A DNA stretch of 32,000 bases from Candidatus Saccharimonadota bacterium. Lineage in GTDB: Archaea > Nanohalarchaeota > Nanosalinia > Nanosalinales > Nanosalinaceae. The notes beneath the pieces were generated by a model. It did not search any database. It saw nothing but the letters and a program-made list of their open reading frames with translations, and was not told the DNA's origin. This document shows, piece after piece, positions 3,489 to 28,455 of this stretch (the first letter of the stretch is position 1; every line of letters starts with the position of its first letter). The stretch lies in NCBI RefSeq assembly GCF_047555085.1, contig NZ_CP180230.1:150001-182000 (forward strand). The letters are read 5' to 3'. The position numbers were made by a program, and so were the translations under genes.

Positions 3489-4142
3489 ATGGCAGGCCTG
3501 AAAGAATCGGAGCTTGATGAGCTTAAAAATCGTTTGAGGGAAGAGTTCTTGGATTACTACGAGATGGCTGGAGGGAAAAACTATCGTTTCCATCACCTTG
3601 TCAGAGCTCATAGATACGTCGTGAAACTTATCGAGAGGCCTGAGATCAGGGAACTGGATTTTGATCAGAAAGTTCTAGAAGTTGCAGCGCTTTTCCACGA
3701 TATCGGCAGGAAAGAGGATATCGAGGATGGTTTTCTTGATCCTATCGAGGCCCATGAAGGCCACGATGAGACAGGAGAGGAAATCGTCGACGAATACGTT
3801 GAAGAATTTCTGACGGAGGAACAGTTAGCGGAAGTCAAGGAGATTATCGGGAATCATCACTCGGAGCCGGAAAGAGTTGAAACAAGGATTTTGCAGGATG
3901 CGGACACACTGGGTATTTTCGGCCCGTTGAATATCTGGCGGATGATCCATTATGCATCTGACAATGAGAGGCCTCTTGAAGATACTTTTGAGTATTTCTG
4001 GAGCGAAGGAACTGAGAGAAGGATCAAGAAGATGCAGGAACTGAACTTTGACTGCTCGAAGAGGATCGCCCGGAAAAGAATGAAGGATTTTCAGGAGACA
4101 ATGCAGAGGATCGAGGAAGAACATTTCGGTGAAGACATCTAG
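3489..4142 (+). CDS. HD-domain metal-dependent phosphohydrolase
   Basis: Has H...LFHDIGR (the HD dyad) plus later GNHH and DADTLG motifs typical of the HD superfamily. Confidence 0.75.
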   Translation: MAGLKESELDELKNRLREEFLDYYEMAGGKNYRFHHLVRAHRYVVKLIERPEIRELDFDQKVLEVAALFHDIGRKEDIEDGFLDPIEAHEGHDETGEEIVDEYVEEFLTEEQLAEVKEIIGNHHSEPERVETRILQDADTLGIFGPLNIWRMIHYASDNERPLEDTFEYFWSEGTERRIKKMQELNFDCSKRIARKRMKDFQETMQRIEEEHFGEDI

Positions 4143-8795: not shown

Positions 8796-9854
8796 TTGGA
8801 TACTACTGAGTTAAGCTGGCAGAAGAATAGAGAGGATTATCTGAAAAAAGCCTATGCAGCCGTCAATGCAGACAATGATCCTGTGCCGTTGAATGAAGCA
8901 GTTGAGAACTGGAACATGCTTACAGGAGAGGCCTCTAAGCATTTCTTCTGGAAATCGCTGGGCCTTTTCAGAATCAACGATAGCCTGGATATTATAGACG
9001 ACTCGGGAGATCACCTGATAGATATAGATACTGATATTTCGCTTGAAGATTTACAGGAAGATATAGAGCTTGTTCCTGGAGACGGAAGAAACGTCAGGAA
9101 GCATAAAAAAAGCGATTACAGAGGATACGGTGATCTGAGTGTTCCTGAAGTTCCACTTTTCATAGCATGGGAACATCTTGACAGGAACGGATACGAAATC
9201 TTTCCTTACGAGGATCCGGAATTAAGAGGCCTTGCAGGCAGAACTGAGTCCTCTGAAGGAGCTGAGGAAAAATGGCTGGGGTTCTACAGTCATGATGGAC
9301 GAAAGCAAAGCAGTTCTTGGATCAATCAGGTTTTCAGAGGCCTCACTGTGGAAGGCGAAGATTTTCTGTCTACTGAAGATGTTTTCAGCGACAGGAATGC
9401 AGAGAACTATGTTGAGAAGATCTGGGAGTCGGAGCCTCTGAAGATCCGGCAGCGACTTAACAGTGTATGGGATGCAGCTCTGGAAACTGTTGAGGAAGAG
9501 CTTCCGAGACGCGTTGAAGAATACGAGGATCGCTGGGGTAACGATATAGATGAAAGAGAGGCCCTGAAGCGGGAGATGCGTTTGATGGCCGGTGACGACG
9601 AGTTCAGAGAGGACGGTGCCTATATAGAGAGAATCGTCCACGGCTACTGGGATGGAGAACTTGAAAGGTATTCGCCGGTTCTTGATCCGTTCCTGGAGAA
9701 TATAGAGTCAACGCCTCTGGAGGAAGGTGACATGCCGTACGGAGAAGCTGTACGTGGCTCTGAAACTTCTGAAGGCAAGAAAGAAAGGAACAGGATGTAC
9801 ATGCAGCATTTCCTTGATCTGGTCTGGCAGATGTCGGAGGAGCGTTACAGTTAA
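8796..9854 (+). CDS. acidic hypothetical protein (352 aa), probably co-transcribed with the nuclease-like pair
   Basis: Long ORF with neighbour-like acidic composition. It starts (TTG) only 3 nt after the upstream stop. No motif recognised. Confidence 0.5.
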   Translation: MDTTELSWQKNREDYLKKAYAAVNADNDPVPLNEAVENWNMLTGEASKHFFWKSLGLFRINDSLDIIDDSGDHLIDIDTDISLEDLQEDIELVPGDGRNVRKHKKSDYRGYGDLSVPEVPLFIAWEHLDRNGYEIFPYEDPELRGLAGRTESSEGAEEKWLGFYSHDGRKQSSSWINQVFRGLTVEGEDFLSTEDVFSDRNAENYVEKIWESEPLKIRQRLNSVWDAALETVEEELPRRVEEYEDRWGNDIDEREALKREMRLMAGDDEFREDGAYIERIVHGYWDGELERYSPVLDPFLENIESTPLEEGDMPYGEAVRGSETSEGKKERNRMYMQHFLDLVWQMSEERYS

Positions 9855-9894
9855 AGGGAAAAATTCTTTACTTTTCGACCACGAAGTATTCTCT

Positions 9895-10602
9895 ATGAGT
9901 AACGACTGGAAGACAGAGATATCTTCAAGCGGAGAAGACGCAGTCATCCGCGGAGAGAAACTGGAAAAAGTAATGGATATGGATTTCTCCGATTCAATAT
10001 GGCTTTTGCTGAAAGGAGAGAAGCCAACTGAAGAGGAATCCGAAATATTCAAGGCGATACTTTCAGGATCAATAGATCACGGAGTAGGAAATCCATCCAC
10101 AGTCTCCGCACGGACAGTTCAGAGCGGAGGAAACGACATGAATACTTCAGTAGCTGCTGGCATAATGGCATTAGGAGACAGCCACGGAGGAGCAATCGAA
10201 GAAGGTATGAAGATTCTCCAGAGTGAAAAATCAGCCGAAGAGATAGTCGAAGAATATCTGGAAAGCGGAGAAAAGATTCCAGGCCTTGGACACAAAGTAT
10301 ACAGCGAAAAAGATCCGAGAACAGAAAAGATACTGGAGAAAGCAGATAGTCTAGGCCTCTCAGGAAGGTATGTCGAGAAAATGAAAGATATTCAGGAGGC
10401 CTTTGCTGATGAAAAAGTCAGACTGGTGATGAACGTCGACGGCGGGATCGCAGCAGTTATGAGTGATATGGACTGGGATCCTGAGCTTGGGAAAGGATTC
10501 TTCATAATCGCAAGGACGCCAGGATTAGTGGCGCACGTCAGAGAGGAGATGGACAGGCCTGATTTCAGGAGAGAGGACGGTGAATACACCGGTGAACAGT
10601 GA
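9895..10602 (+). CDS. truncated citrate-synthase-family protein (citryl-CoA lyase / ATP-citrate-lyase C-terminal-domain-like)
   Basis: LGDSHGGA (citrate synthase GPLHGGA region), GLGHKVYSEKDPR (signature G-[FL]-GH-x-VY-x-x-DPR), MNVDGG (catalytic Asp region) and ARTPGLVAHVREE are all present. The ~235-aa length lacks the N-terminal third of true citrate synthases. I chose ATG 9895 because the longer 9727 ORF overlaps the previous gene with a basic, non-neighbour-like peptide. Confidence 0.7.
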   Translation: MSNDWKTEISSSGEDAVIRGEKLEKVMDMDFSDSIWLLLKGEKPTEEESEIFKAILSGSIDHGVGNPSTVSARTVQSGGNDMNTSVAAGIMALGDSHGGAIEEGMKILQSEKSAEEIVEEYLESGEKIPGLGHKVYSEKDPRTEKILEKADSLGLSGRYVEKMKDIQEAFADEKVRLVMNVDGGIAAVMSDMDWDPELGKGFFIIARTPGLVAHVREEMDRPDFRREDGEYTGEQ

Positions 10603-12631: not shown

Positions 12632-13456
12632 ATGTCTTTAATTGAAAACTTGTTGATAGTTTTTGTAGCAGGATTGATAACTGACCTGGCGACAGGCCTG
12701 GGTGTAATACCGTTCTTCTTCACAGAAGACTTCAGTGATAGGTGGCTTGTAGGCCTCTGGGGGCTTGCATCCGGTATAATGCTTTCTGCATCATTCCTTG
12801 GACTTATACCAGAAGGCTTGGCAGCTGGAAGTAATTTCCCGATCTATGGATCTGGTGTGCTGGCTGTATCGATGGGGCTGTTTATAGGAGCAGGCCTCGT
12901 GATTGCAGCAGGACGCTGGCTGGATGAGGCCGAGCTTGATCCCGGAACTTTCGAAGAAGCAGATTTCAAGAAGATGGCTCTGATACTGGGAATCTTGACT
13001 GTTCACAGCTTCCCTGAAGGAGTTGCTATCGGGGTTGCTTTCGCCGAACTTGGTCTTGGAAGCGGTGTACCGGTCCTTGGATTTGCTATACCGGCTATAG
13101 CGATAACGATGACTATAGCGATCTCTATACACAACATTCCTGAAGGAATCGCCATAGCTATACCTTTCAAATCTATGGGCATAAGCAACTGGAAGACTGT
13201 CGGAGCAGCAGTATTTTCAAGCGTACCGCAGCCAATAGGAGCTGTAATCGCATTCCTTTTCGTCACACAGGCCCAGACATTCCTTCCGCTGGGATACGGA
13301 TTCGCTGCAGGAGCGATGATCTATCTCGTGATCACAGAATTTTTCGATGAGGCCTTTGAACAGGGCCGTCATCTCGAGAGAAGAGGCCTTCCGGCTTTCG
13401 CAGCAGGGAATATCGGTGGCCTGGCGGTCATGGTGCTGCTGTTCCTGATGGTCTAG
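12632..13456 (+). CDS. zupT: ZIP-family divalent metal (zinc) transporter
   Basis: Polytopic hydrophobic protein carrying the paired signature motifs HSFPEGVAIG and HNIPEGIAIA that are characteristic of ZupT/ZIP transporters. Confidence 0.85.
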   Translation: MSLIENLLIVFVAGLITDLATGLGVIPFFFTEDFSDRWLVGLWGLASGIMLSASFLGLIPEGLAAGSNFPIYGSGVLAVSMGLFIGAGLVIAAGRWLDEAELDPGTFEEADFKKMALILGILTVHSFPEGVAIGVAFAELGLGSGVPVLGFAIPAIAITMTIAISIHNIPEGIAIAIPFKSMGISNWKTVGAAVFSSVPQPIGAVIAFLFVTQAQTFLPLGYGFAAGAMIYLVITEFFDEAFEQGRHLERRGLPAFAAGNIGGLAVMVLLFLMV

Positions 13457-15325: not shown

Positions 15326-15742
15326 TTAACGGTAGGACTTCTGCTGTTTGTGACGAGCTCCCTTGCTCGACTGACTTGGTTTTCTGGTCTCGGTTCTTCG
15401 AGGATCCTCGACCATCATATTCCTGTCGTAATCCCTGAAATCTCTTTCAAGCTGGTCGCTGTCGGTGTACTCTACAAGGCCTCTGGCGATAGCCATTCGA
15501 ATGGCCTCTGTCTGCCCCTGCTTTCCGCCTCCGTTTGCGTCGACACGGATGTCAAGATCGCCGACGATATCTTCTCCGGCTATGTTCAGAGGCTCCTTGA
15601 TTCTCTCCGCCTGCATATCGCTCTGGTTCGCCCAGAGATGCACAGGCCTGGAGTTGATCCTCAGAGTTCCTTCTCCTTCCTTGACTGTTGCACGGGCCTT
15701 CGCCGTCTTCCTCTTTCCGTTAGTATGTACAGAATCTGACAT
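15326..15742 (-). CDS. rps9: 30S ribosomal protein S9 (uS9)
   Basis: GKRKTAKARATVKEG-GTLRIN, GGGKQGQTEAIRMAIARGL and the C-terminal ...KGARHKQQKSYR are all uS9 hallmarks. Confidence 0.95.
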   Translation of the reverse strand: MSDSVHTNGKRKTAKARATVKEGEGTLRINSRPVHLWANQSDMQAERIKEPLNIAGEDIVGDLDIRVDANGGGKQGQTEAIRMAIARGLVEYTDSDQLERDFRDYDRNMMVEDPRRTETRKPSQSSKGARHKQQKSYR

Positions 15743-16173
15743 TATCTTTCACCTACCGGCTCCCAGCCGATATGTCTTGATACTTTACCAAGTTTTACAT
15801 AGTTCCTGTTCTGAAGCTCGTCTCCAGACTTTGTGTCAACTTCCTCTACATCGTCCTCAAACTCGTGAGGAACACCGATGTAGGCCTTCACACGTGAAAG
15901 AGCCTCCTTCCCGCGATCCTCCTTGTAAGGAACCATTCCACGCAGACTGCGCTTCAAAATCCTTTCAGGACTCTTAGGGAAATGAGGGCCTCTATCACGG
16001 ACACCTCTATCATGCTTCGTCTTGTACTCATCAAGAACCTGCTCCGTATCACCGGATACAACAGCTTCCTCAGAGTTGACAACTCTAACTTCTTCGCCGT
16101 CAAGAGCTTCCTGAGCGATCTCAGAAGCCAGACGTCCGATAACTCGATTACTTGCATCAATCACTTTTGTCAT
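15742..16173 (-). CDS. rpl13: 50S ribosomal protein L13 (uL13)
   Basis: VIDASNRVIGRLASEIAQ... and ILKRSLRGMVPYK match uL13. Its stop overlaps the S9 start by 1 nt (TAATG). Confidence 0.95.
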   Translation of the reverse strand: MTKVIDASNRVIGRLASEIAQEALDGEEVRVVNSEEAVVSGDTEQVLDEYKTKHDRGVRDRGPHFPKSPERILKRSLRGMVPYKEDRGKEALSRVKAYIGVPHEFEDDVEEVDTKSGDELQNRNYVKLGKVSRHIGWEPVGER

Positions 16174-16225
16174 TATTCGAAACTCACCTGAGTTTCTGTA
16201 AATCCGAAAATTCTCTGAATTTTCA

Positions 16226-16600
16226 TCATTTAATCACCTTTACATTGGAGCCTTCAGGATTATCCTCGACAAGATCACGGATGAACATAAACTCTCCGTT
16301 CTCCCTGATCTCACTTTTAGCTCCTTTAGAGGCCTTGAAAGCCGCAACATTAACTTCCTTGCTCAAACGTCCTGAGCCAAGAACTTTTCCGGGAACGACA
16401 ACAGTATCGCCGTCCTCAGCATTCCTCTCGATATCCGAGATATTCACTTCAGGCCTCTTCCTGTTAACTTTTCCAAGATTTTCAGCAACTTCCTTCCAGA
16501 TAGTTGCATCCTGATGCTCCAAGAGCTCAATAGTCTCCAGAAGCACTGTATTCGTAGGGTCTGCATTATTATCCATTGTTGAATTAACACCTCGCGGCAC
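16226..16600 (-). CDS. rpl18e: 50S ribosomal protein L18e (eL18)
   Basis: NISDIERNAEDGDTVVVPGKVLGSGRL and KEVNVAAFKASKGAKSEI match eL18, and the gene holds the canonical position upstream of L13-S9-RpoN. Start is GTG 16600 or ATG 16576. Confidence 0.85.
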   Translation of the reverse strand: MPRGVNSTMDNNADPTNTVLLETIELLEHQDATIWKEVAENLGKVNRKRPEVNISDIERNAEDGDTVVVPGKVLGSGRLSKEVNVAAFKASKGAKSEIRENGEFMFIRDLVEDNPEGSNVKVIK

Positions 16601-17681: not shown

Positions 17682-17712
17682 TGAGAGGCCTCAAAAATTC
17701 AGAGGCCTCTCA
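17682..17712. terminator. bidirectional terminator hairpin (TGAGAGGCCTC-aaaaattca-GAGGCCTCTCA)
   Basis: Perfect 11-bp stem lying between two convergent genes (stops at 17642 and 17724). It is flanked by A-runs on the plus strand, which read as T-runs on the minus strand. Each arm contains AGGCCT. Confidence 0.6.
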
Positions 17713-17723
17713 AATGAGATTTT

Positions 17724-20700
17724 TTATTCTACGACGCTGCCTGAAGCAGTATCGACTGTGACCTGTGTCTCGCCGGAAAGAGCTTCTTCATGCTGGCCAT
17801 AGTTAGCCAGGAAGTTTCCTGCAGCTCTCGTATCTTCTCCGGTGTAACCTGCAACGACAAGAGCATCATGCTCGTCGTTAAAGGCCTCAGGTACAAGCTG
17901 TAGAAGGCCTTCTCCCTCTGTGTAATCACTTGTACTCCAGGTCTTGTTCATGTCAGCAAGATCCTGCACAAGTCCGTTCGCAGCAGGCCCTCCGACAAGA
18001 ATCAAGTTCCTGTTGTCCTGAACTTCACTGATGTAATCGTCGCTGTCAAGAGCAACGCTCTGAGCAGGCCATCCGGTCGGCATCATCGACTCAACTGTAC
18101 CGGTAGCACCAGCAGAAGCACTCAGGCCTCCCTCGGCACCAGTAACAGCAGCACCAGCCGTAGACTGGCCATCAGGAATATTCAACGTGAACTCTCCCTG
18201 ACCATCATCATCGTACTCGGAATAAGCACCGAATACATCATAACCGGCCTCTACATTGTCATCAGACTCAAGAGTCTGCTGCTCTCTCGTGTCACCAGTA
18301 TAAGACGCATCCTGTACATCAAGTTCATCATCGTCAGCATCATCGTAACTGACGGTGTTGATGTAGGCGTTCTCGTTGTCACTGTCGTCCTCAGGTTCCA
18401 TGGTGATTGCTGCAACACTTACTGGATCTACGCTTGTAGAGCCACTTTCTGTGTAAGTAGTTGTAGGATCGCTCTGAGGATTGATAGTGAACTTTGTAGG
18501 ATTACTGCCCGAGGTTACATCGGTTGTGTTCATCCTTACACGGACATCTCTGTCAGCTGTTAGAGAGGATGGAGGGCTGTCGTTGAAGTCAAGAGTCACT
18601 GTGTTGCCATTGTTGCTTGTTGTGGCTTGGCTTACAGTAACACTTGTCCATCCGCCGCTTCCATCAGCGTAATCTACTGTGTAGTTGGATGTAGCACTTG
18701 GAAGCTGGACGTCATCGTCAGTAATCTCTATCTGATCTAGACTATCTCCAGCACTGTTGTCGCTTACCGGTGCTGTCAACTGTGTATCGCTACTGCTATC
18801 GCTTGCAAAGTAGTCGGAAACGGTGATGCTTAGAGTGGTGTCTGTTGACTCTGTTACTGTTGCAGGAGCAACGTGTAGATCGTTTCCATCATATCTTGCT
18901 CTGTAATCAAGCTGTCCTACTGTGAATGTACTAGAGCTTGATGGAACTGTAACGTCTACCTGCTGTTCATCAGTTGACTCTGTGCTTGGAAGCTCAAGTG
19001 TTACTGTATCTCCTTCAGATACGTCCTGAGCTACTACTGCATCCTTTGCTAGAGCGATTGCTGCACCTGAGTCTGTGTCTACAGGTGTAAATACTGATGT
19101 GGCTCCGTCTCCAGACTGACCTGTATCCTCGTAACCTGCACTATCGCCCCAGGTTACTTCTAGACCGGTATCGCTGCCAGAGTCGGTAGCTGAGTCGCTG
19201 TCGTAGTCGAAGTAGTAGGTCTGTCCATCGATGATTTCTTCTCCCTGTGCCTGTGTATCGTCGACGTCTCCGTCGTCGTGGTCAAGTTCTACTTCTACTG
19301 TGTTGCCTGTTACAGCATCACGTAGATCGACTGTTGATTCTTCGTTGTCGCTTGAATCGAAGTCTACGCTTGTGACTTCCCACATGTGTGCGAAGTCTCC
19401 TGCGTCTGTTGCGAAGTACTCGTCTTCAGCAACTGGCTGTCCTTCTGCGGAAACAATTGCGTCTCCGTCGCTGTCTGCCAGTTCAACTACCTGATCATCT
19501 TCTTCATCGTAGAAAGCCCATTCAACTGATGCGGAGTCTCCGTTGTTTCCTGTGAAGTCGATTGTTGCTGTGTCGTCTCCGCTTGTTGAGACTTCTACCT
19601 GTCCGACGTTTTCTCCGTTCTCTGAAGCGTCAGGATTCAGGCCGCCGAAGTGTACTTCGACGTCTTCGAACATGCTGTGGCTCCAGGAATCTCCTGCAGC
19701 AAGATAATCGCTGTCGTCATCCTCGGATCCAAGGTATAGATCGATTGAAGAAACTCCTTCTCCAAGATTGCCGCTTGTCAGTCCTCCATCGCCGTTGAAC
19801 ATGACGTGTGTTCCTTCGATTTCGTCTCCATCGTCATCTTCAATAGCTGAATCGTGCGATAGGACTAGTTCTTCGCTTCCGATTGCGAACTGTACGACTC
19901 CGCTGCTTGACTCGGAACCGCCGGTCTTGATGATCTGGTCTACTCGGACCTGCTGTCCGTCGATGTTGAATGTAGCATCGGTGTCCTCGCTTCTGAGGTT
20001 GCCGTCTACACGGATAGCAGCGTTACCATCAGAACCTCCGCTGTTGACGGATACGACTTCTAGTGTGTGTTCTTCGCCGTTGATGGTGACTGTTGTGCTT
20101 TCGCCTGTTTCGACTGTTACTTCTTCGCTTGAACCGTAAAGAACTAGCTCACTATCATCGTAAGCATTGTCGTCCTGTGATACGGTGTAGGTCTTTCCGA
20201 ACAGTTCGATTTCCTCTCCCTGAACATCTTCATCGGAGAAGTTCAGACTGTCTCCGAAGTTTGCCTGAAGGTTGACAAGGTAATCTTCATCGTTTACCTC
20301 GCCTTCAGATGGGACAGGAACGTGAAGAACAGGATCTTCGTTGTCAAGTCCATCAACGTCGTTACCGAAGCTGATATCCTTGGCTCCTACATTCAGGTAA
20401 CTTGTAATATCGGTCTCTGTACCTGAATCATCTCTGAACGTTGTCTCTGCAAGGAAGTCCAGATCGTCTTCTGTAAGTGTCTCTCGAACTGAATCAAGAG
20501 TATCTCCGAAGTAAAGCTGATCGTTCCTTGTATCCAGAGTAACTCCGCCGTCTGCACTCCAACCGAAGCTACCGGAAACATCAACAGATCTTGTCTCAGA
20601 CATTGCAGCATCGTTACCAAGCTGACCTGCAATCTCTGTAGCAGCTACAACATCTGTAGCCTTAGCGTCTGCTCCCATAACAAGAGTGGAAGCAATCTCA

Positions 20701-20873
20701 CCGTCATCATTGATGAACGGGTGAGGATAATCTCCTAGATCGCCGGATCCACTTGACCCACTGTGAGAACTAGCTGAAACCATTGCTGCTCCTCCAGCAA
20801 TAGTAGCTCCTACCAGTAGTGCGGTTCCTGCGACTGCCTTCGAACTTTCTTTGATCTTTTCAATTCGTTTCAT
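17724..20873 (-). CDS. secreted S-layer-type surface (glyco)protein, paralog 1 (1049 aa)
   Basis: - N-terminal signal/anchor: KAVAGTALLVGATIAGGAAMVSA.
- LGDYPHPFI-x-DG...LVMGADAKATDVVAATEIAGQLG matches the archaeal S-layer N-terminal pattern (LxDYPxPFV...vVvG..A...DV.aA..IA..L).
- The C-terminal NLILVGGPAAN...ALVVAGYTGEDTRAAGNFLANY matches the S-layer C-terminal pattern.
- Extremely D/S/T/G/V-rich with many N-x-S/T sequons.
- GGTGA Shine-Dalgarno sequence 9 nt before the ATG. Confidence 0.7.
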   Translation of the reverse strand: MKRIEKIKESSKAVAGTALLVGATIAGGAAMVSASSHSGSSGSGDLGDYPHPFINDDGEIASTLVMGADAKATDVVAATEIAGQLGNDAAMSETRSVDVSGSFGWSADGGVTLDTRNDQLYFGDTLDSVRETLTEDDLDFLAETTFRDDSGTETDITSYLNVGAKDISFGNDVDGLDNEDPVLHVPVPSEGEVNDEDYLVNLQANFGDSLNFSDEDVQGEEIELFGKTYTVSQDDNAYDDSELVLYGSSEEVTVETGESTTVTINGEEHTLEVVSVNSGGSDGNAAIRVDGNLRSEDTDATFNIDGQQVRVDQIIKTGGSESSSGVVQFAIGSEELVLSHDSAIEDDDGDEIEGTHVMFNGDGGLTSGNLGEGVSSIDLYLGSEDDDSDYLAAGDSWSHSMFEDVEVHFGGLNPDASENGENVGQVEVSTSGDDTATIDFTGNNGDSASVEWAFYDEEDDQVVELADSDGDAIVSAEGQPVAEDEYFATDAGDFAHMWEVTSVDFDSSDNEESTVDLRDAVTGNTVEVELDHDDGDVDDTQAQGEEIIDGQTYYFDYDSDSATDSGSDTGLEVTWGDSAGYEDTGQSGDGATSVFTPVDTDSGAAIALAKDAVVAQDVSEGDTVTLELPSTESTDEQQVDVTVPSSSSTFTVGQLDYRARYDGNDLHVAPATVTESTDTTLSITVSDYFASDSSSDTQLTAPVSDNSAGDSLDQIEITDDDVQLPSATSNYTVDYADGSGGWTSVTVSQATTSNNGNTVTLDFNDSPPSSLTADRDVRVRMNTTDVTSGSNPTKFTINPQSDPTTTYTESGSTSVDPVSVAAITMEPEDDSDNENAYINTVSYDDADDDELDVQDASYTGDTREQQTLESDDNVEAGYDVFGAYSEYDDDGQGEFTLNIPDGQSTAGAAVTGAEGGLSASAGATGTVESMMPTGWPAQSVALDSDDYISEVQDNRNLILVGGPAANGLVQDLADMNKTWSTSDYTEGEGLLQLVPEAFNDEHDALVVAGYTGEDTRAAGNFLANYGQHEEALSGETQVTVDTASGSVVE

Positions 20874-21034
20874 GTGTGTAATTCACCTTGAATTCTTTAA
20901 CTCCAGAGAGTTCTCCCTGGAAAAGTGGCTCTAGTGTAACCACTTCGTGCGCGCGCACAGTTCAAAATTATATTTTATAGCTGAGTTACTGCGAGATAGC
21001 GATTTCTAACTGTGCAGTACAAGAATAAAATGTC

Positions 21035-21066
21035 CCAACCTTTTAAATCCTTTGCCTTAAAGGCCT
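21035..21066 (-). promoter_or_regulatory. candidate distal promoter box for S-layer paralog 1 (minus strand: AGGCCTTTAAGGCAAAGGATTTAAAAGGTTGG)
   Basis: A near-identical block occurs upstream of paralog 2 at 24399-24430 and contains a TTTAAAA TATA-like core. A second conserved TATA-like element (ATAAAATA on the minus strand) lies nearer the genes, at ~20969-20978 and ~24200-24208. Confidence 0.3.
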
Positions 21067-21212
21067 TTTTACAGCTTGTAAACACGTCTTAACAATTTTT
21101 CAGGCCCGTAAAAATATTCAGACGCTTTTTCAACCAGTTAGAAATAATTTCGAACTTTCAGAATCAGTTAAATTGTATCTAGTAAGTGAAAATAAAAAGA
21201 GAAAGAAAAAAG

Positions 21213-21238
21213 TGAAAGGCCCCGTTAGAGGCCTTTCA
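21213..21238 (-). terminator. terminator hairpin after S-layer paralog 2 (TGAAAGGCC-ccgttaga-GGCCTTTCA)
   Basis: Perfect 9-bp stem 12 nt after the stop at 21250, followed on the minus strand by a T-rich tract (CTTTTTTCTTTCTCTTTTTATTTT). Confidence 0.55.
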
Positions 21239-21249
21239 AGGAGACAGGA

Positions 21250-24108
21250 TTACTGTACAACACTTCCTTCTGCTGTGTTGATTGTAACCTGTGTCTCTCC
21301 GTCAAGAGCTTCTTCGTGCTGTCCGTAGTTGGACAGGAAGCGACCTGCTTCTCTTGTGTCTTCTCCGGTGTAACCGGCGACTACAAGTGCGTCGTGGTTC
21401 TCGTTGAATGCTTCAGGTACAAGCTGTAGAAGGCCTTCTCCCTCTGTGTAATCGCTTGTACTCCAGGTCTTGTTGGCGTCAGCTAGCTCCTGTGTTAGGC
21501 TGTTAGCTGCCGGTCCTCCAACAAGGATCAGATTCCTGTCGTTCTTGACTTCGCCGATGTAATCGTCGCTGTCAAGAGCAACACTCTGAGCAGGCCATCC
21601 AGTAGGTGTCATTGTCTCTACACTACCAGAAGCTCCTGCGGAAGCTGAAAGACTTCCATCCTGTCCAGTCACAGCAACTCCAGCTGTAGACTGTCCATCA
21701 GGAAGATGCAATGTGAAGCTTCCCTGACCATCGCTGTCGTACTCGGAGTAAGCTCCGAATACATCATATCCAGCGCTGACATCGTCGTCAGACTCCATCG
21801 TTACCCAATCATCTGTGTCTCCGTTGATTGTGGCTGTTGTCGATGGAGATCCTACTGTAAGTTCCTCATCACCAGAATCGTATCCGTTGGTGATTGTGTA
21901 GGTGTTCTCTGTGTCGCTATCGTCTTCAGGCTCGATAACGAGTGCTGCAGGATCAGTCTCTGAAGGTGAAACTGTTAGAGAGCTTCCACTAGCGTCAAAC
22001 GTGTAAGTCTCTCCTCCGTTTACCTGTGCTGTCAAGACTCCGTCGTTGTCATCGTCTCCGACTGTAACGCCAGAGCTTGATTCTACGTTGTTGATGGTGT
22101 TTGTATCTACATCGTAGTCGAAGTGAACTGTCGCTTCATCTGTAGATTCGGTAGATGGCAGTTCGTAGACTACATCAGTATCTGATCCGGTGCTGGAGCT
22201 GTCTAGTGTTGCTGTCTGTGTGAATGCTACTGATGCTCCAGAATCAGTGTCTAGAGGTGTGAATACTGAAGTTGTGCCTGTTGTGACGCCGGTATCGGTG
22301 TCATCGTCGTTACCGGTAAAGTCTGATGAGTCTCCCCATGCTACCTGTAGACCGGTTCCTGTTGAGTCGCCATCTAGGACGAAATGGTATGCCTGTCCAT
22401 CGATGATTTCTTCGCCGACGTAGTCAACGTGGGATCTGTCGCCTGTACTGTCGTCTGGCTGTGCGTCTAGTTCTACTTCTACTGTGTTGCCTGTTACAGC
22501 GTCACGTAGATCGATTGTTGCTTCGTCGCCTACTGAAGGTGTGTTGCTGTTTGAGTCTGTGTCTCTATCGATGCTTGTTACTTCCCACATGTGTGCGAAG
22601 TCTCCGGCATCTGCTGCGAAGTACTCGTCTTCTGCGATAGACTGTCCTTCAACTGAGATGAAGTTGTGTCCGTCTGAGTCAGCTAGTTCTAGGCCGTCTC
22701 CTGTAACAGGTTCTCCATCTTCAGGATCTGCTCCATAAATGTAGTTAATTGAAGCATCGTCTCCTGAGTCTCCTGTCATATCCAGTGTGACTGTGTCGTC
22801 GCCTGAAGTTGAAACTTCAACCATGCCGACGTTGTCTCCTGCTTCCTGTGCGTCAGGATTCAGACCGCCGAATTGTAGCTCGACGTCTTCGAACATGCTG
22901 TGGGAGAATGTTTCTCCTGCTGTGACGTAATTTTCGTCGTCATCTTCTGCACCGACATAAACGTCAATGCTGGAAATCTCTACTCCATCATCGGATGCGA
23001 CGATGTCTGTTACATCTGAATCTCCATTGAATTCAACGTGTGATCCTTCGATGTCGTCGCCGTCTTCATCCTGAATAGGCTCGCCATCTACAAGAGTTAG
23101 TTCTTCTGATCCGATTGCGAACTGTACTACTCCAGAGCTTGACTCAGATCCTCCTGTTTTGATGATCTGGTCTACTCGGACCTGCTGTCCGTCGATGTTG
23201 AATGTTGCGTCAGTGTCTTCAGATCTTAGTGATCCGTCGACTCTGATTGCTGCGTTTCCGTCGTCTCCGCCGGAGTTGACAGATACAACTTCTAGAGTGT
23301 GTTCTTCGCCGTTGATTGTAACGGTTGTGGATTCTCCAGTTTCGACTGTTACTTCTTCCTGTGCTCCGTAAAGAAGAAGCTCGTCAGCGTCTAGGTCTCC
23401 TCTCTGTCCGTTTTCGTTCTCCTGTGCGATTGTGTAAGTCTTTCCGAACAGTTCGATTTCCTCTCCAGCTACATCGCTGTCAGAGAAATCAAGACTGTCT
23501 CCGAAGTTTGCCTGAAGGTTGTAAACGTATGTGGTTGCGTCTACGCTTCCTTCGGCTGCATTTCCGAAGTCTACGTGAAGAGCTGGATCTTCGTCTTCTT
23601 CAGCTTCTCCGAAAGTTACAGGATGCTCTCCTACATTCAGGTATGTTGTGATGTCTGTTGATGTTCCTGAATCGTCCTGGAATGTTGTCTCTGCAAGGAA
23701 GTCTAGATCGTCCTGTGTTAGTGTCTCTCTTACTTCGTCAATGTTGTCGCCGAAGTAGAGGTTGTCGTTTCTTGTGTCTAGTGTTGTTCCTCCGTCTGCG
23801 CTCCATCCGAAGCTTCCTGCTACGTCAACTGATTCTGTGGATGTTGAGAATGCGTCGTTTCCTAGCTGTCCTGCGATTTCTGTTGCAGCTACGACGTCTG
23901 TTGCTTTTGCGTCTGCTCCCATTACAAGAGTAGATGCTACGTTGCCATCATCGTCGATGAATGGACTTGGATAGTCGCCTAGGTCACCACTTGACCCGCT
24001 GTCCTGAGCAGATACCATTGCAGCTCCTCCTGCAATTGTTGCTCCGACCAGCAGTGCGGTTCCTGCGACTGCTTTAGAACTTTCTTTGATCTTGGTAATT
24101 GTTTTCAT
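21250..24108 (-). CDS. secreted S-layer-type surface (glyco)protein, paralog 2 (~952 aa)
   Basis: Same N-terminal signal, S-layer N- and C-terminal blocks and several near-identical internal blocks as paralog 1. I chose ATG 24108 because MKTITKIKESS aligns with MKRIEKIKESS of paralog 1 and GGTGA lies 10 nt upstream. The ORF track extends to GTG 24120. Confidence 0.7.
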   Translation of the reverse strand: MKTITKIKESSKAVAGTALLVGATIAGGAAMVSAQDSGSSGDLGDYPSPFIDDDGNVASTLVMGADAKATDVVAATEIAGQLGNDAFSTSTESVDVAGSFGWSADGGTTLDTRNDNLYFGDNIDEVRETLTQDDLDFLAETTFQDDSGTSTDITTYLNVGEHPVTFGEAEEDEDPALHVDFGNAAEGSVDATTYVYNLQANFGDSLDFSDSDVAGEEIELFGKTYTIAQENENGQRGDLDADELLLYGAQEEVTVETGESTTVTINGEEHTLEVVSVNSGGDDGNAAIRVDGSLRSEDTDATFNIDGQQVRVDQIIKTGGSESSSGVVQFAIGSEELTLVDGEPIQDEDGDDIEGSHVEFNGDSDVTDIVASDDGVEISSIDVYVGAEDDDENYVTAGETFSHSMFEDVELQFGGLNPDAQEAGDNVGMVEVSTSGDDTVTLDMTGDSGDDASINYIYGADPEDGEPVTGDGLELADSDGHNFISVEGQSIAEDEYFAADAGDFAHMWEVTSIDRDTDSNSNTPSVGDEATIDLRDAVTGNTVEVELDAQPDDSTGDRSHVDYVGEEIIDGQAYHFVLDGDSTGTGLQVAWGDSSDFTGNDDDTDTGVTTGTTSVFTPLDTDSGASVAFTQTATLDSSSTGSDTDVVYELPSTESTDEATVHFDYDVDTNTINNVESSSGVTVGDDDNDGVLTAQVNGGETYTFDASGSSLTVSPSETDPAALVIEPEDDSDTENTYTITNGYDSGDEELTVGSPSTTATINGDTDDWVTMESDDDVSAGYDVFGAYSEYDSDGQGSFTLHLPDGQSTAGVAVTGQDGSLSASAGASGSVETMTPTGWPAQSVALDSDDYIGEVKNDRNLILVGGPAANSLTQELADANKTWSTSDYTEGEGLLQLVPEAFNENHDALVVAGYTGEDTREAGRFLSNYGQHEEALDGETQVTINTAEGSVVQ

Positions 24109-24398
24109 GTTTGAAGTCACCGTGTTGTTGATTGTTTGAAGACGCGTTGTGTCTTCGAGTCGGTGGCTGGTAGGCCACGCGTGTGCACGTGTGTTTTCTT
24201 TATTTTATGAACAGGCCTGTGCCTGGACCCGTCACGGATCTTTTGTATCGAAGCAGTTTCCGATGCTGCTTCGCGGGATCCCGTTCCCGGAAAAAAACCT
24301 GAGTCGATTGCTTCCTGACTCAATCACTATAGCGGGAAACCTGAGATCCATCGGCTATCGCTGTATCTGGCCGAAGTCCTTGTTCCAACCATTACCAC

Positions 24399-24430
24399 CC
24401 TACCTTTTTAAACCCTTTGAATAAAGGCCT
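24399..24430 (-). promoter_or_regulatory. candidate distal promoter box for S-layer paralog 2 (minus strand: AGGCCTTTATTCAAAGGGTTTAAAAAGGTAGG)
   Basis: Conserved with 21035-21066 and has a TATA-like TTTAAAAA core. If used, it implies a ~290-nt leader. Confidence 0.3.
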
Positions 24431-24490
24431 GTTCTAACCGTTCATGCACTGTTCTAACACGTTCTTTACCGTTCAAATTCCTGATTCAAC

Positions 24491-24684
24491 GTTTTAGAAT
24501 CCTTCTTTCGTTAATCAAAACTCTTAGAACTTTACAGAGAGGCCTGAAAATGTCTTTCCGGGCTTCTATACAAACTATATTTTACAGGTTTTCAATCTTT
24601 TTCTAGAGGCCTGAAAATCTTTCTCTGACTTATTGAGGCCTGTTTGAATCTTTATGAACTTTTAGAGTCTGAAAAATCTTTCCC
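24491..24684. repeat. array of 4-6 degenerate direct repeats, consensus ~T(T/C)TAGAGGCCTGAAAAT-CTTTC
   Basis: Copies read directly from the sequence:
- 24536-24559: AGAGAGGCCTGAAAATGTCTTTCC
- 24603-24625: CTAGAGGCCTGAAAATCTTTCTC
- 24631-24656: TATTGAGGCCTGTTTGAATCTTTATG
- 24661-24684: TTTAGAGTCTGAAAAATCTTTCCC
- weaker copies at 24491-24510 and ~24522-24535
Related copies lie at 27001-27035, 27049-27074 and 6866-6890. Confidence 0.5.
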
Positions 24685-25189
24685 AGCATTGTTCGCCCAA
24701 CTTCGAACAGGAGTACAGGCCTCTACGTAAAGTTTTACAGGGAGAGAAAAGTTCTGGGGAAAGTTGAGGAATTCTGTATGACTGTTCACGCCGATTTTCC
24801 GCATCCTTATTTATTACTTCGGGATGAATGACTCGGTATAGGTTATGTTATCACTGACATTGATGTTGGTGGCAAGGGAGCTGGTACAGAGCTCCAGGAT
24901 CATGCTCGCATTCTAGAACTTTCCTAATTTCTTCATCAAAAATTTTTCCCGGTTCTACAATCGCCTAGAGGCCTCTATACGGAAAATATAAAAGCAAGCC
25001 CGTTTTTTGTGTAATCCGGTGAGGAAGATTCCTGGAGAACCAATAAACCAATAAGTCGAAGCAGGAGTTTTGGGGATGGTCGATAAGTACAGCTAGCTCT
25101 TCAAAAAGCTGGTATAAAAAGAATGGCTCTAGTGGACTTAACGCTAATCACTCAATTTATGGGCTCTCTAACTCTCTGATTATGGGATA

Positions 25190-25620
25190 AACGTAGCTAG
25201 AGCGATGCTTTGGAAGCTAGGTCTTCCGAAAGCATTTTTAAATTATGTCCCTATAATGTTACATAGGGCATAACCGAAAGACCAATCCACGAGTACGTTA
25301 TGCCAAATCCGAACCAGCCTATAACATAACCAACACTGGCTTAGGTGTCGACCCCTAGGGTGTGTTGGTACCCTAGGGGGTGTCTTTACCCTATTTTTTA
25401 CCCAATTTTGAGAGAATAGTTTCTGTTCGATAGCACTGATATTCTTAAGGGTTGAATAGAAACCAGAGCTTGGGTGGTGACCAATCACCAAGGGTAAAGA
25501 CACGCTAGACTCAAAGGAATACTTTGACGTTTTTGTCAAGTCTCTTCTGCAAAGTCTAGCTCGACAGCTAGTGAGCGGACTGGGGGCCTTCGTGCCCCCA
25601 TTAGTTCACTAGTTTGTCTA
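25190..25620. other. ORF-free, hairpin-dense segment (possible structured ncRNA or relic element), unassigned
   Basis: Inverted repeats read directly from the sequence:
- 25205-25235: ATGCTTTGGAAG / CTTCCGAAAGCAT
- 25244-25272
- tandem ACCC(C)TAGGG(GG)TGT at 25351-25385
- 13-bp long-range pair, 25380-25392 with 25491-25503
- TGGTGA-ccaa-TCACCA inside that pair
- 25504-25511 with 25553-25560
- nested hairpin 25568-25612: CTAGTGA..GGGGGC-cttcgt-GCCCCC..TCACTAG
No family was recognised. Confidence 0.3.
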
Positions 25621-25853
25621 CCCTAATTCTCTAAGGTATGAGTCAAAACCGCATCGACGATGTGCTTTTGCTTGATCCTAATGTTAGCACTGAGGAACGC
25701 AGAGATTATCGAAGCCTTGAGAAATAATAATTACGGCTCGAAGAAAGAGCTAGCTGAAGACTCTCAGAAGAAACATTGTGGTAAAATTCAAGCAGAATGG
25801 CAGAAAATTTTCTCCAGAAAGTCCGTAGCTGGAAAAATTATGTTAGAAAAATA

Positions 25854-25936
25854 TGCCGGGAGCAAGATTTGAACTTGCGAACCCCTGCGGGAACAGATCT
25901 TGAGTCTGTCGCCTTTGGCCACTTGGCTATCCCGGC
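25854..25936 (-). tRNA. tRNA-Leu (anticodon CAA)
   Basis: Reverse-complement cloverleaf: acceptor GCCGGGA/TCCCGGC, anticodon stem ACAGA/TCTGT with loop CTCAAGA (anticodon CAA), long variable arm TCCCGCAGGGGTTC, T-arm GCAAG-TTCAAAT-CTTGC, and discriminator A. No encoded CCA. Confidence 0.9.
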
Positions 25937-25980
25937 ATCGTGTAAAAATTGTTCTGTGCAAGAAATGTTTAAAGTATGTG

Positions 25981-26460
25981 TTAGAGGCCTTCTGCATCGA
26001 TGTGGCTGATCTGGTTTTTCAGGGCCTCTGCGGCGAGGTGTCCTTCCTGTACGTCGTGTCCTGTTACGTAGTCTTCCGGTGTTTTTTCTCCGGAGATTAT
26101 CTTCAGTTCTCTTTCCAGTTCGTGGTATCTGTCTCGGATCTCTCCCATACGTGAATCGATCTCATCTGCTCTCTGTGGTGTGCCGTTTCTGCCGTCGAGA
26201 AAGGCCTGTAACTCTCCTGAAAGCAGAAAAAGCTGATCGTCTACGTCTGCTTTCCTGTCACGGGCCTGTTCAACGGCCTCGTCTCTAAGTTCCTTCAGAT
26301 CGAAAAGTTCTGATGGAAATACTTCCTCTCCAAGAGTGTCGAAAAGTTCTCCGTGATACTCTCCGGCTGCATCGGCATAGTTCGCTGCCTCGACAGTTTT
26401 ACTGTAGAAAGTTTCGTAGGCCTCTTCCAGTTCATCAAGGTATACTTCCAGTTGTTCCAC
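25981..26460 (-). CDS. acidic helical hypothetical protein
   Basis: 159-aa E/D/L-rich ORF with a GTG start, lying immediately upstream of tRNA-Leu on the same strand. No motif recognised. Confidence 0.5.
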   Translation of the reverse strand: MEQLEVYLDELEEAYETFYSKTVEAANYADAAGEYHGELFDTLGEEVFPSELFDLKELRDEAVEQARDRKADVDDQLFLLSGELQAFLDGRNGTPQRADEIDSRMGEIRDRYHELERELKIISGEKTPEDYVTGHDVQEGHLAAEALKNQISHIDAEGL

Positions 26461-26851: not shown

Positions 26852-27218
26852 TCTGGTATCACTTCTCAAGTAGCATAATTTTTCTCCACGGGGTTTTTCT
26901 ATTTCCTAGATATGTATGTAATGGTTAACAGTCTTTAATAAAGATTATTTTGGCTTTCCATCCCCGGATTTACTGAAAATTCATATGCTCTAAGAAAAAG
27001 TTAGAGGCCTGAAAAATAATTTTTAAAGTCTTTAACTCTAAAAAGAACTTTTAGAGGCCTTTATTTGCTTCTGGAAAGATTTTAAGGTTTTTTAATTTAG
27101 AGGAGGTGACATCGATATGTATATTGGAGAGGTTTCGGCTTTTCTGAATTGATGTATGAAGCACTGATAGACTGGATTAAAGCAACTTTCAGGTACTTTT
27201 TATCCAATAGAAAGTTTT

Positions 27219-28310
27219 TCAGGTAGCTTTTCCTATATTTTCCCCGGACTGGTATCTGTCCGGATCAGCTGCATAATCCTGGCCGTCGTCGTAGAAATCT
27301 TTAGCATCCAGAATCTCTTTTCTGACGTGTTCGGCCTCTTCATCCACTCGATGTATTGCTTCTAACAGGTCCTCGAAGGCTTCGTTTATTTCATCTGCTT
27401 TCCTGACACGTAAAGTCCCGGCGCCAGGCCCCATACGATCCTGATTCGCCTGTACATCTGCAAAATATCTTGCTACATCCCTCAGAGAAGCAGTGTTTCC
27501 GTATTTCAACTCGTGTATTTTTTCCTGTATACGCTCTACGTTTTGAAGAGTCTGATCCTCTACTTCCGCGCCTCTTTTCTTCAAGGCCTCTCCCTGTTTT
27601 ATCAGAGTGTTAAGCTGTTCCTTCAAGGTTTTTGCTTTACTCTCTATCTTGTGTATCTCTCCTGTTTTATCACTATCTTCTACTTCTTCAAGGACGCCGA
27701 CAAGATTTTCAAGTCGTTCCTCCTCCATTCTCAGACGTCCTATCTCTTCTTCAAGCATCTCTATTGCCGGTATGCTGTCCTGTATCTCAACTTCCTCGAT
27801 ATCGTCAATATTTACGAGGATGGTATGCATACGCCGTACATCTGTCTTGAATTTTTCAACTTCTTCGAGAAGTTTATCCGAAGGAAACTCTCCATCACGT
27901 TCAATTCTTCCGTTTCCGTACTGGCTATCCATGTCAGGATCAGCATTATATCCCAGCGCCTTACTGGATTGAGCATTCTTCAGAGAATTCTTCATATTAA
28001 TTATATCCTCGAAAAGAGCACTCTCCTCGTTTTCAACTTCTGTCTCAGTATTGCTTATATCCGAGAGTTTCTGGAACTCATTTTCTTCCCGCTCATAGAC
28101 CTCCTCTTCAGCTTCTTCAATCTCGGCCTCTATCTCGTTAATCTCCATCTCAAGTTCTTCAACAGCGTTCAAAAACTTTCTCTTATTCTTCAGGATCTGA
28201 CTGGTATCGATGCTTCCTCCTTCAAACAGATCTGAGAGAATACTTCCTTCCTGATCCTTAACAGACTCTTCCTTAGATTCTATATCCCGAATCTCATCAC
28301 TAAGACTCAC
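27219..28310 (-). CDS. large acidic coiled-coil hypothetical protein (363 aa)
   Basis: Long E/I/L/K-rich heptad-like stretches such as EELEMEINEIEAEIEEAEEEVYE. GTG start. No enzymatic motif. Confidence 0.55.
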   Translation of the reverse strand: MSLSDEIRDIESKEESVKDQEGSILSDLFEGGSIDTSQILKNKRKFLNAVEELEMEINEIEAEIEEAEEEVYEREENEFQKLSDISNTETEVENEESALFEDIINMKNSLKNAQSSKALGYNADPDMDSQYGNGRIERDGEFPSDKLLEEVEKFKTDVRRMHTILVNIDDIEEVEIQDSIPAIEMLEEEIGRLRMEEERLENLVGVLEEVEDSDKTGEIHKIESKAKTLKEQLNTLIKQGEALKKRGAEVEDQTLQNVERIQEKIHELKYGNTASLRDVARYFADVQANQDRMGPGAGTLRVRKADEINEAFEDLLEAIHRVDEEAEHVRKEILDAKDFYDDGQDYAADPDRYQSGENIGKAT

Positions 28311-28455
28311 GGGCAGTAATTACAGCTCCTGATTTAAAACGATGAACAGAGGCCTTGATGCATGAAAAATTTCCCCTCCTTCCTGCTGAGAACGTATAGG
28401 CCTAGAGATTGAATTTGAAAATTTCAAAAAAGTCTTGTACAAAAATTTTACTGGT

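Follow-up and report, generated by a model that had tools for sequence, protein, structure and literature searches.

Protein sequence and codon usage as the probable basis of AGGCCT-free stretches at a tandem S-layer locus of a nanohaloarchaeon

The S-layer locus and its AGGCCT-free stretches

The 32-kb window analysed here (the whole stretch of contig NZ_CP180230.1 under study) is densely populated by the palindrome AGGCCT, which is missing over kilobases in a tandem pair of S-layer genes and in an adjoining segment without open reading frames (ORFs) next to a tRNA-Leu gene. GC content of the window is 47% and its proteome is acidic; ribosomal protein L13 has its best matches in the metagenome-assembled genome (MAG) NHA29 (77%) and in Nanosalina J07AB43 (72%), and the phylum is Nanohaloarchaeota. 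Both S-layer genes lie on the reverse strand. Paralog 1 (17724..20873, 1049 aa) and paralog 2 (21250..24120, 956 aa from a GTG) belong to the S-layer family PF05124 / TIGR01564, with PF05124 E-values of 1.6e-12 and 1.3e-17. The true start of paralog 2 is likely the ATG at 24108, which follows GGTGA and gives 952 aa, the length also of the homologue P0003. A search returned 54 homologues, many named S-layer protein and almost all from Nanohaloarchaeota, and an exact-sequence look-up of the two window proteins gave no record. Identity between the paralogs is 66% over aa 1–640 and 72% over the 250 C-terminal residues, and only the part in between is divergent. The preliminary description of this DNA, which had treated only the 3' ends as conserved, was therefore right about those ends and overlooked the conserved opposite ends.

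AGGCCT occurs 125 times in the window against 6.4 ± 2.6 expected (maximum 16) in 100 dinucleotide-preserving shuffles. This ~20-fold excess, measured on 32 kb of the source genome, is of the more than 10-fold order that characterises a palindrome of the highly iterated palindrome (HIP) kind. Of the copies, 26 lie in 4.7 kb of intergenic DNA and 14, 43 and 42 in the three codon phases; the motif is therefore a DNA-level signal rather than a peptide motif. The longest gaps run from 18124 to 21061 (2937 bp), from 21431 to 24213 (2782 bp) and from 24969 to 25985 (1016 bp), followed by a gap of 943 bp (9338–10281); the first three are the AGGCCT-free stretches that had been picked out from the sequence. 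Desert 1 (18130..21060) covers codons 1 to ~914 of paralog 1 together with its 5' leader and ends at the AGGCCT just upstream of a TATA-like box. Desert 2 (21437..24212) covers codons 1 to ~894 of paralog 2 and the first ~90 nt of its leader, and desert 3 (24975..25984) comprises 878 bp of ORF-free, hairpin-rich DNA, the tRNA-Leu gene and a 43-bp spacer. Within the S-layer genes the copies are confined to the 3' ends, as had been noted: paralog 1 has three, at 17882, 17905 and 18124, all in the C-terminal 135 aa, and paralog 2 has one, at 21431.

At the rate prevailing outside the deserts (4.7 per kb), a Poisson model assigns probabilities of 1e-6 and 2e-6 to the two long gaps and 0.0085 to the 1-kb gap; with ~112 gaps in the window, this crude model expects one 1-kb gap roughly once by chance. 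The apparent improbability of the gaps stems from an unsuitable null model, the Poisson calculation having overstated the anomaly ~20-fold in expected count.

Protein sequence and codon usage of the S-layer genes

We consider it probable, on balance, that the coding deserts follow from the protein sequence of the S-layer genes combined with their codon dialect, and that the non-coding desert has a different background, in a decayed accessory spacer. The source genome would be under a strong, ongoing pressure that makes AGGCCT in situ by point substitution, acting on non-coding DNA and on coding DNA in each codon phase, and the deserts would be places that give this pressure little to work on. 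The S-layer protein sequence leaves only 6–7 AGGCCT-encodable positions per gene, and the dialect avoids the GCC and NNG codons that AGGCCT needs.

The composition of the S-layer proteins is restrictive: R, K, L and P make up 1.4, 1.0, 5.6 and 2.3% of residues against 5.8, 5.4, 8.7 and 3.5% elsewhere, and the proteins are rich in D, T, S and G. Synonymous opportunities for AGGCCT, defined as R-P, [KQE]-A-[FLSYCW] and x-G-L only, number seven in paralog 1 (three realised) and six in paralog 2 (one realised), which amounts to 6.5 per 1000 aa against 17 elsewhere in the window; three per gene lie within the desert. In the S-layer family at large (43 homologues), 4.2 ± 1.4 opportunities occur per 1000 aa.

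Codon usage narrows these opportunities further. In the S-layer genes ATA serves 1% of Ile against 43% elsewhere, GCC 7% of Ala against 23–31%, NNG 3% of four-fold codons against 18%, and CTA 33% of Leu against 5%. The same dialect, judged in each case against the gene's own flanks, marks the S-layer genes of six related nanohaloarchaeal loci (L017, L018, L099, L101, L019 and L021) and, more weakly, those of L100 and L054; CTA takes 28–43% of Leu in the S-layer genes of the window and of L017, L018, L019, L021, L099 and L101, against 5–21% in flanking genes. Ribosomal-protein genes use CTA for 7% of Leu, unlike the S-layer genes, and share with them the avoidance of ATA. Since the dialect is present in motif-rich and motif-poor relatives alike, it is a property of the gene family and derives neither from foreign origin nor from motif avoidance; translational selection on a very abundant protein is its likely cause. 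Taken alone, the deviation in codon usage (chi-square 444, 40 d.f.) might pass for a sign of foreign DNA, a reading rejected because the S-layer genes of all relatives share the dialect.

Expected counts agree with this picture. Permuting synonymous codons within each gene predicts 0.67 and 0.47 copies for paralogs 1 and 2 (0.61 and 0.51 in a second run), and re-encoding the genes with background codon usage predicts 0.76 and 0.79, against three and one observed. An average gene would be expected to carry ~2.3 AGGCCT per 1000 aa, as against 0.5–0.8 per S-layer gene. Under the same permutation null the background genes of the window hold 94 copies where 16.2 are expected. Pooled over five motif-rich genomes, S-layer genes contain 12 copies against 2.5 expected (4.8-fold), and the background of the window and L123 contains 124 against 21.5 (5.8-fold), a difference with P = 0.32. 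S-layer enrichment over the null is thus close to that of the background, so that no special exclusion, import or rapid evolution is required. The observed-versus-expected comparison proposed earlier, in which an expectation near zero was to count against any special cause, therefore resolves the coding half of the question, with fewer than one AGGCCT expected per S-layer gene; amino-acid composition, raised at that time and played down, accounts for both coding deserts once the codon dialect is added.

Several observations weigh against this attribution. Realised opportunities amount to 12 of 35 (34%) in S-layer genes and to 122 of 171 (71%) in the background (Fisher P = 6e-5); if the pressure saturates, behaving logistically rather than multiplicatively, a ~two-fold S-layer deficit stays unexplained, which we regard as small. 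The shortfall lies mainly in phase 1, which needs GCC (4/16 versus 52/75, P = 0.0015). The codons that phase 2 requires (xxA, GGC, CTx) are ones that the dialect does not avoid, and realisation is lower here too, at 8/19 versus 46/67 (P = 0.058). One site, GGC GGC CTG at aa 410–412 of paralog 1, is a single step from AGGCCT in the direction of a preferred codon and is unrealised here, while being realised in L017. The permutation null is, moreover, partly circular, in that a gene escaping the pressure would also show motif-unfriendly codons, and the source genome is represented by one 32-kb window. The count of zero of six opportunities realised inside the deserts is not an independent test, because realisation there is zero by construction.

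Other large acidic surface proteins low in K and R (fn3, PKD and YadA-like, in L008 and L004) realise 8/12, 10/20, 11/13, 9/9 and 3/5 of their opportunities. Since acidic surface proteins elsewhere carry the motif, it is the specific S-layer sequence and dialect that matter, and not acidity as such. More generally, the amino-acid sequence and codon dialect of a gene need to be accounted for before a stretch lacking a hyper-abundant motif is taken for foreign DNA.

AGGCCT pressure across nanohaloarchaea

In the remaining genes of the window, 93 of 121 opportunities (77%) read AGGCCT. Such opportunities are also more numerous than within-protein shuffles predict (121 versus 69); the corresponding ratio is 1.75-fold in motif-rich genomes and 1.04 in motif-poor nanohaloarchaea. 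This confinement of the tripeptide excess to motif-rich genomes indicates that the pressure has apparently altered protein sequences too. Saturation is lower in membrane proteins rich in x-G-L, which realise only 10–55% of their opportunities (5/10, 5/9, 4/9, 4/10, 4/10 and 1/9), namely a ZIP transporter (window 12632–13456, with orthologues in L004, L005, L008 and L028) and the gene at 16501–17304 of L123.

Abundance of the motif is patchy among relatives. AGGCCT reaches ~2.4–4.6 per kb in the window, L001, L004 (SG9), L005, L008, L017, L028 and L123 (2.56 per kb), with observed/expected ratios of 12.5–22 in L001, L004, L005, L008, L017 and L028; intermediate densities of 0.5–0.6 per kb occur in L007, L099 and L100, and only ~0–0.3 per kb in L003 (Nanosalina), L002, L006, L009, L010, L018, L101 and L124. 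By L13 identity, the motif-poor Nanosalina J07AB43 is closer to the window than the motif-rich SG9; several MAGs are motif-rich as well. Over 6 kb of orthologous genes at 75% nt identity, the window and L028 share eight sites, 15 others being window-only and eight L028-only. Sites are mostly lineage-specific and are therefore gained and lost quickly. In alignments with L028 and L017 the lineage-specific sites face sequences that differ by 1–3 substitutions, as in-situ origin predicts, and conservation of the flanks does not extend past ±1–3 nt, which argues against spread by a mobile repeat.

Immediate flanks show a preference for V at −1 and B at +1, a preceding T or following A being rare. 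Among one-off variants outside the deserts, AGGTCT/AGACCT is ~9-fold depleted (2 versus 18 expected) and AGGGCT/AGCCCT is reduced as well (2 versus 12), while NGGCCT variants are enriched and AGGCCV/BGGCCT are up 2–3.5-fold. Purging of the transition neighbour fits a T:G to C:G repair bias; that of the transversion neighbour does not. Profile searches of the window genes found no methyltransferase domain, and no vsr or 5-methylcytosine (m5C) methyltransferase gene was seen in the window. Hyper-abundance of AGGCCT in nanohaloarchaea was not described in the literature searched.

Two further motif-poor stretches were recorded. A 363-aa gene at window 27219–28310 (no Pfam match, low GC of 0.43) carries one AGGCCT, realises 1/3 opportunities and overlaps a gap at 27584–28350. 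The only AGACCT of the window that is not in an S-layer gene also falls here, and the gene may be a further atypical one. Positions 4061–6384 of L123 span 2.3 kb without AGGCCT and include RNase HII, tRNA-Met, a small ORF and a PIN/VapB pair.

For the most part the deserts as such are unremarkable; of greater interest is the motif system beneath them, which merits a study of its own. Some Nanohaloarchaeota carry, at ~4 per kb, a HIP1-like palindrome that fills about three quarters of its synonymous opportunities and has apparently increased motif-compatible tripeptides in proteins by ~70%. As this palindrome is patchily distributed, turns over fast and is accompanied by a purge of AGGTCT/AGACCT, it lends itself to the study of how such motifs originate, with repair bias and selection as candidates.

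Expression and possible counter-selection

Avoidance of the motif in highly transcribed genes, the second of the explanations first offered, finds no support as a general rule. The ribosomal-protein genes S9, L13 and L18e (15326..16600, reverse strand), which serve as a high-expression control, carry five motifs at normal density (5/7 opportunities), and the three genes in six motif-rich genomes realise 25 of 34 opportunities (74%), much as the background does, despite avoiding ATA. S-layer genes are codon-biased and depleted, ribosomal-protein genes are not depleted, and all classes are similarly enriched over the permutation null.

A narrower version, in which AGGCCT is directly counter-selected in the most heavily transcribed unit and removed from S-layer genes beyond what codon usage predicts, is in our judgement improbable, even though it fares best among the alternatives. 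The motif might act there as a protein-binding, methylation or cleavage site that hinders transcription or mRNA function. Such removal would explain why the realised fraction is about half that of the background and why desert 1 begins right at the paralog 1 promoter, and the extreme codon bias of these genes suggests very high expression. It also has precedents: transcript abundance and HIP1 frequency are negatively correlated to a degree that codon bias does not explain (PMC5861425), and HIP1 is missing from rDNA and ribosomal-protein genes (PMC3025956). Against it stand the ribosomal-protein genes just described and the distribution of the motif within the S-layer transcripts themselves: their 3' ends carry AGGCCT (4/7 opportunities in the window), as do the paralog 2 leader and the terminator hairpins, and L017 and L123 have motifs within the N-terminal part. 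Enrichment of 4.8-fold over the genes' own permutation null is likewise hard to reconcile with removal.

The non-coding desert beside tRNA-Leu

The non-coding desert is a modestly significant feature, separate from the coding ones. Other non-coding DNA of the window holds 19 AGGCCT in 3005 bp (6.3 per kb, 33 times the number that a first-order Markov model predicts), and the neighbouring 854 bp (24121–24974) hold seven; the 878 bp at 24975–25852 hold none where 5.6–9.4 are expected (P(0) = 0.004 to 8e-5). Composition fails to explain this desert, as was argued at the outset, and the segment is not a normal one. It is indeed rich in hairpins, with fold z-scores of −6.7 on one strand and −7.2 on the other, where 24121–24974 gives −2.3. 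Perfect hairpins are dense at 25200–25620, where one nested long-range pairing (13-nt arms at 25380–25392 and 25491–25503) encloses two hairpins; the same interval also holds CCCCTAGGGT/ACCCTAGGGG and GGGGGC/GCCCCC.

Part of the segment is a decayed gene. An HVO_A0114-family (PF25212) pseudogene with two frameshifts lies at 25647..25816 on the forward strand and is homologous to L123 8403–8738, to which it gives three collinear matches (63–70% identity) in frames +3, +1 and +2 with a combined E of 3e-12; family assignment of the L123 gene comes from a precomputed Pfam list. In motif-rich, syntenic L123 the order is rhomboid, EndA, RNase HII, further genes, a HypA-like gene, the w25981 homologue and tRNA-Leu(CAA), followed on the S-layer side by two HVO_A0114/DUF7718 gene pairs, the S-layer gene, RHH/DUF433, the w16749 homologue and L18e-L13-S9. 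Because accessory pairs occupy the same place in L123, the position of the desert is a variable accessory spacer. The tRNA-Leu(CAA) gene itself (25853..25937, reverse strand) also stands upstream of the S-layer gene in L123 and in motif-poor L124. Accessory and toxin-antitoxin genes of L123 and L017 carry 1.0 AGGCCT per kb against 3.3 in core genes, with enrichment over the permutation null of 5.0 against 5.8.

In the proposed scheme, relatives carry small accessory helix-turn-helix (HTH) and toxin-antitoxin-like genes between tRNA-Leu and the S-layer gene, and the window would retain a decayed remnant of these together with hairpin-rich DNA. Most likely, the motif is absent because the spacer is younger in this genome than its surroundings, or was constrained until recently. 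Two findings sit less well with this reading of the spacer: its dinucleotide signature departs only modestly from the norm and is like that of the adjacent motif-bearing non-coding DNA, and neither an att-like repeat of tRNA-Leu (at least 12 nt, near the locus) nor an integrase (in the 32-kb window) was found.

The main alternative to decaying accessory DNA is that the segment is structured and functional, whether as a large non-coding RNA, as a site of replication or recombination, or as a cluster of palindromes that bind proteins, and that constraint on its sequence keeps AGGCCT out, as in tRNA genes. The strong folding, the nested perfect inverted repeats and the lack of any ORF of the usual acidic composition in the segment speak for such an element. 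An Rfam scan of 20800–26000 matched only tRNA even at E ≤ 1, however, and comparison with related loci revealed no similarity beyond the pseudogene and the tRNA. Both strands fold equally well, which points more to palindromic DNA than to an RNA that forms G-U pairs, and the pseudogene shows that some of the segment is what is left of a protein gene. We therefore rate a structured element as unlikely. Searches for an S-layer pseudogene and for phage similarity in the ORF-free DNA were negative. Scans of viral contigs with two hairpin sequences were empty in one case and in the other returned 21 unrelated contigs over a bare 18-nt GC hairpin, taken as chance. RNase P, suggested by GAAAGUCC and GGCUUA strings, was rejected on their wrong order and the lack of an Rfam match, and a replication origin was set aside as no orc1/cdc6 gene lies nearby.

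Equally unlikely is a common cause for all three deserts, whereby AGGCCT would be a functional HIP-like element (for binding, methylation or the direction of repair) of which the S-layer units and the hairpin-rich segment are actively kept free. An element strong enough to reshape proteins may be incompatible with extreme transcription or with another local DNA function; if so, the deserts would map where it does harm and would give a handle on its function.

Tests of import or rapid evolution of the S-layer genes

The least probable of the alternatives is a recent origin of the S-layer genes, in whole or in large part, from lineages that lack the motif pressure, by import or by replacement through homologous recombination, too late for the motif to have accumulated. 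Motif-poor donors do exist, given the patchiness of AGGCCT among nanohaloarchaea, and the locus lies between variable toxin-antitoxin-like segments and, in several genomes, beside a tRNA. The central ~230 aa are hypervariable: in paralog 1 the centre (18359..19331, reverse strand, ~aa 515–840) shows 35–63% nt identity to the L017 ortholog against 71–89% on both sides, and its dinucleotide-signature distance of 0.26 is the highest of any 880-nt window. Hypervariability was also noted for the equivalent part of paralog 2. AGGTCT/AGACCT, purged elsewhere, is at expectation in the deserts (5 versus 4).

These signs are outweighed by conserved position and orthology. An S-layer gene adjoins the w16749 homologue and L18e-L13-S9 in L001, L017, L028 and L123, so that the synteny comparison suggested earlier speaks against import of the genes themselves, the content of the tRNA-Leu-to-S-layer spacer being what differs. 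L017 has the same tandem, paralog 2 followed by paralog 1, collinear at 71–89% nt identity over the paralog 2 C-terminus, the intergenic promoter region, codons 1–600 of paralog 1 and its C-terminus, only the centre of paralog 1 failing to align. Both paralogs are accordingly older than a split since which the majority of motif sites have changed, and had ample time to accumulate the motif, turnover being high at comparable divergence. Against rapid evolution stand the N-terminal 600 aa, as conserved as flanking genes, and C-terminal identities of 75–78% to L028 and 60% to L001, within or near the range of the housekeeping flanks (57–90%). The apparently foreign codon usage is family-wide, being shared by S-layer genes at eight other nanohaloarchaeal loci. 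The near-motifs AGGTCT/AGACCT in S-layer genes would all need T to A or D to G changes, some at family-invariant residues, and their survival fits purifying selection rather than escape from the pressure. Of the hallmarks of integration, the window offers the adjacent tRNA-Leu, without the repeat or integrase discussed above; L018 has an integrase ~8 kb from its S-layer gene. The first explanation originally given, recent import or evolution too fast for the motif to form, thus finds no support for the S-layer genes, and import is plausible for the non-coding desert.

Organisation of the S-layer locus

The promoter and leader regions of the S-layer genes (window 24124–24476 and 20899–21069) are conserved, with a TATA-like GG(A/G)TTTAAAA ~165–300 nt upstream of the start codon. 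For paralog 1 the box is GGATTTAAAAGG (21039..21050, reverse strand), its promoter role being suggested by conservation, and AGGCCT lies just upstream at 21061; for paralog 2 it is GGGTTTAAAAAGG (24403..24415, reverse strand), with AGGCCT just upstream at 24425. A conserved leader element, TTTTTTTCCGGGAACGGGATCCCGCGAAGC (24268..24297, reverse strand), recurs upstream of the S-layer genes in L019, L099, L054, L021, L003, L123 and L124; the leader element TTTTTTTCCGGGAACGGGATCCCGCGGAGC retains 80–90% nt identity in genomes whose S-layer proteins share only ~45–50%. Farther upstream of the paralog 2 promoter, three copies of a ~20–34 nt repeat, GAAAGAnTTTTCAGGCCTCT, occur 59–67 nt apart (24534..24693, reverse strand); two contain AGGCCT and the third AGACTCT, the 13-mer TTTTCAGGCCTCT recurs at 27003–27015, and the repeats may be binding sites of a regulator. 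A 21-mer at 24645–24665 upstream of paralog 2 is identical in L124.

A terminator-like hairpin follows the paralog 2 stop codon (21213..21238, reverse strand), with AGGCCT in its stem at 21229, a site conserved in L017. AGGCCT lies in or beside such hairpins right after S-layer stop codons at window 21213–21238 and 17686–17708 and at L017 462–473 and 3945–3964, and the copies at window 21234 and 17708 are kept in L017.

Nanohaloarchaeal S-layer genes are regularly flanked by toxin-antitoxin-like or small HTH genes (PIN, ParE, RHH, MNT/NTP_transf_2, DUF433 and HVO_A0114/DUF7718). Examples are L017 4064–6470; L018 5879–6679 and 12148–13401; L099 6945–9206 and 12959–17310; L123 5491–6077, 7577–9191 and 13214–13876; and L124 2409–3206 and 7188–9408, an integrase being present once. 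PF05124 homologues at 41–42% identity are annotated in Saliphagus and Haloferacaceae (Halorubrum), potential hosts of nanohaloarchaea, where they could reflect gene transfer or contamination. A metagenome scan for S-layer relatives yielded 80 loci, of which one was motif-rich (L028, C-terminus only) and most were distant DPANN S-layer genes. The organisation of the locus is thereby clarified as a conserved promoter and leader, a hypervariable centre, variable accessory spacers and tRNA-Leu.

Comparison with known systems

Flexible or metagenomic islands that carry cell-surface genes are known from hypersaline archaea such as Haloquadratum. The S-layer locus resembles them in its hypervariable centre and in the variable toxin-antitoxin/HTH segments and tRNA of its flanks, and departs from them in that synteny and orthology of the S-layer genes hold throughout the sub-clade, variation being limited to the central domain and the flanking spacers. 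A second parallel is offered by the uptake sequences (DUS/USS) in the DNA of Neisseria and Haemophilus, in which recently acquired islands are poor. There too a short motif is dense genome-wide and its local absence marks foreign or flexible DNA; unlike AGGCCT, however, uptake sequences are 9–12 nt long, non-palindromic and present at ~1 per kb, nanohaloarchaea are not known to be competent, and the main AGGCCT deserts are resident genes, not islands.

In Escherichia coli, Dcm/Vsr very-short-patch repair shapes the frequencies of CCWGG and CTWGG. The ~9-fold depletion of the transition neighbour alongside an excess of AGGCCT is of this kind, and the [KQE]-A-x tripeptide excess is consistent with V/T to A replacement, as a T:G to C:G repair bias would produce. 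In contrast to the E. coli system, AGGCCT enrichment is far stronger (~20-fold, with 77% saturation of synonymous sites), the transversion neighbour is depleted as well, which deamination repair leaves unexplained, and the corresponding vsr or m5C methyltransferase gene was not seen.

The closest analogue of the AGGCCT deserts is provided by HIP1 (GCGATCGC) and the HIP1-poor genes of cyanobacteria (Delaye et al. 2011, PMC3025956; Xu et al. 2018, PMC5861425; Elhai 2015, PMC4390886). HIP1-poor genes are either codon-biased and highly expressed or putatively alien (PMC3025956), and HIP1 is anticorrelated with expression partly through non-preferred codons (PMC5861425). Both motifs are short palindromes, 15–300-fold over-represented in all frames and in non-coding DNA, which form in situ by substitution and are patchy among related genomes; in both, central one-off variants are disfavoured, and copy-poor genes may here too be codon-biased and highly expressed or putatively alien. 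AGGCCT differs in being a 6-mer of DPANN archaea and denser, at ~4 per kb, in having no cognate methyltransferase identified in the window, and in sparing ribosomal-protein genes from depletion, most such genes being without HIP1. By this analogy, the pattern of HIP1-poor genes appears to recur here with a different motif, in archaea.

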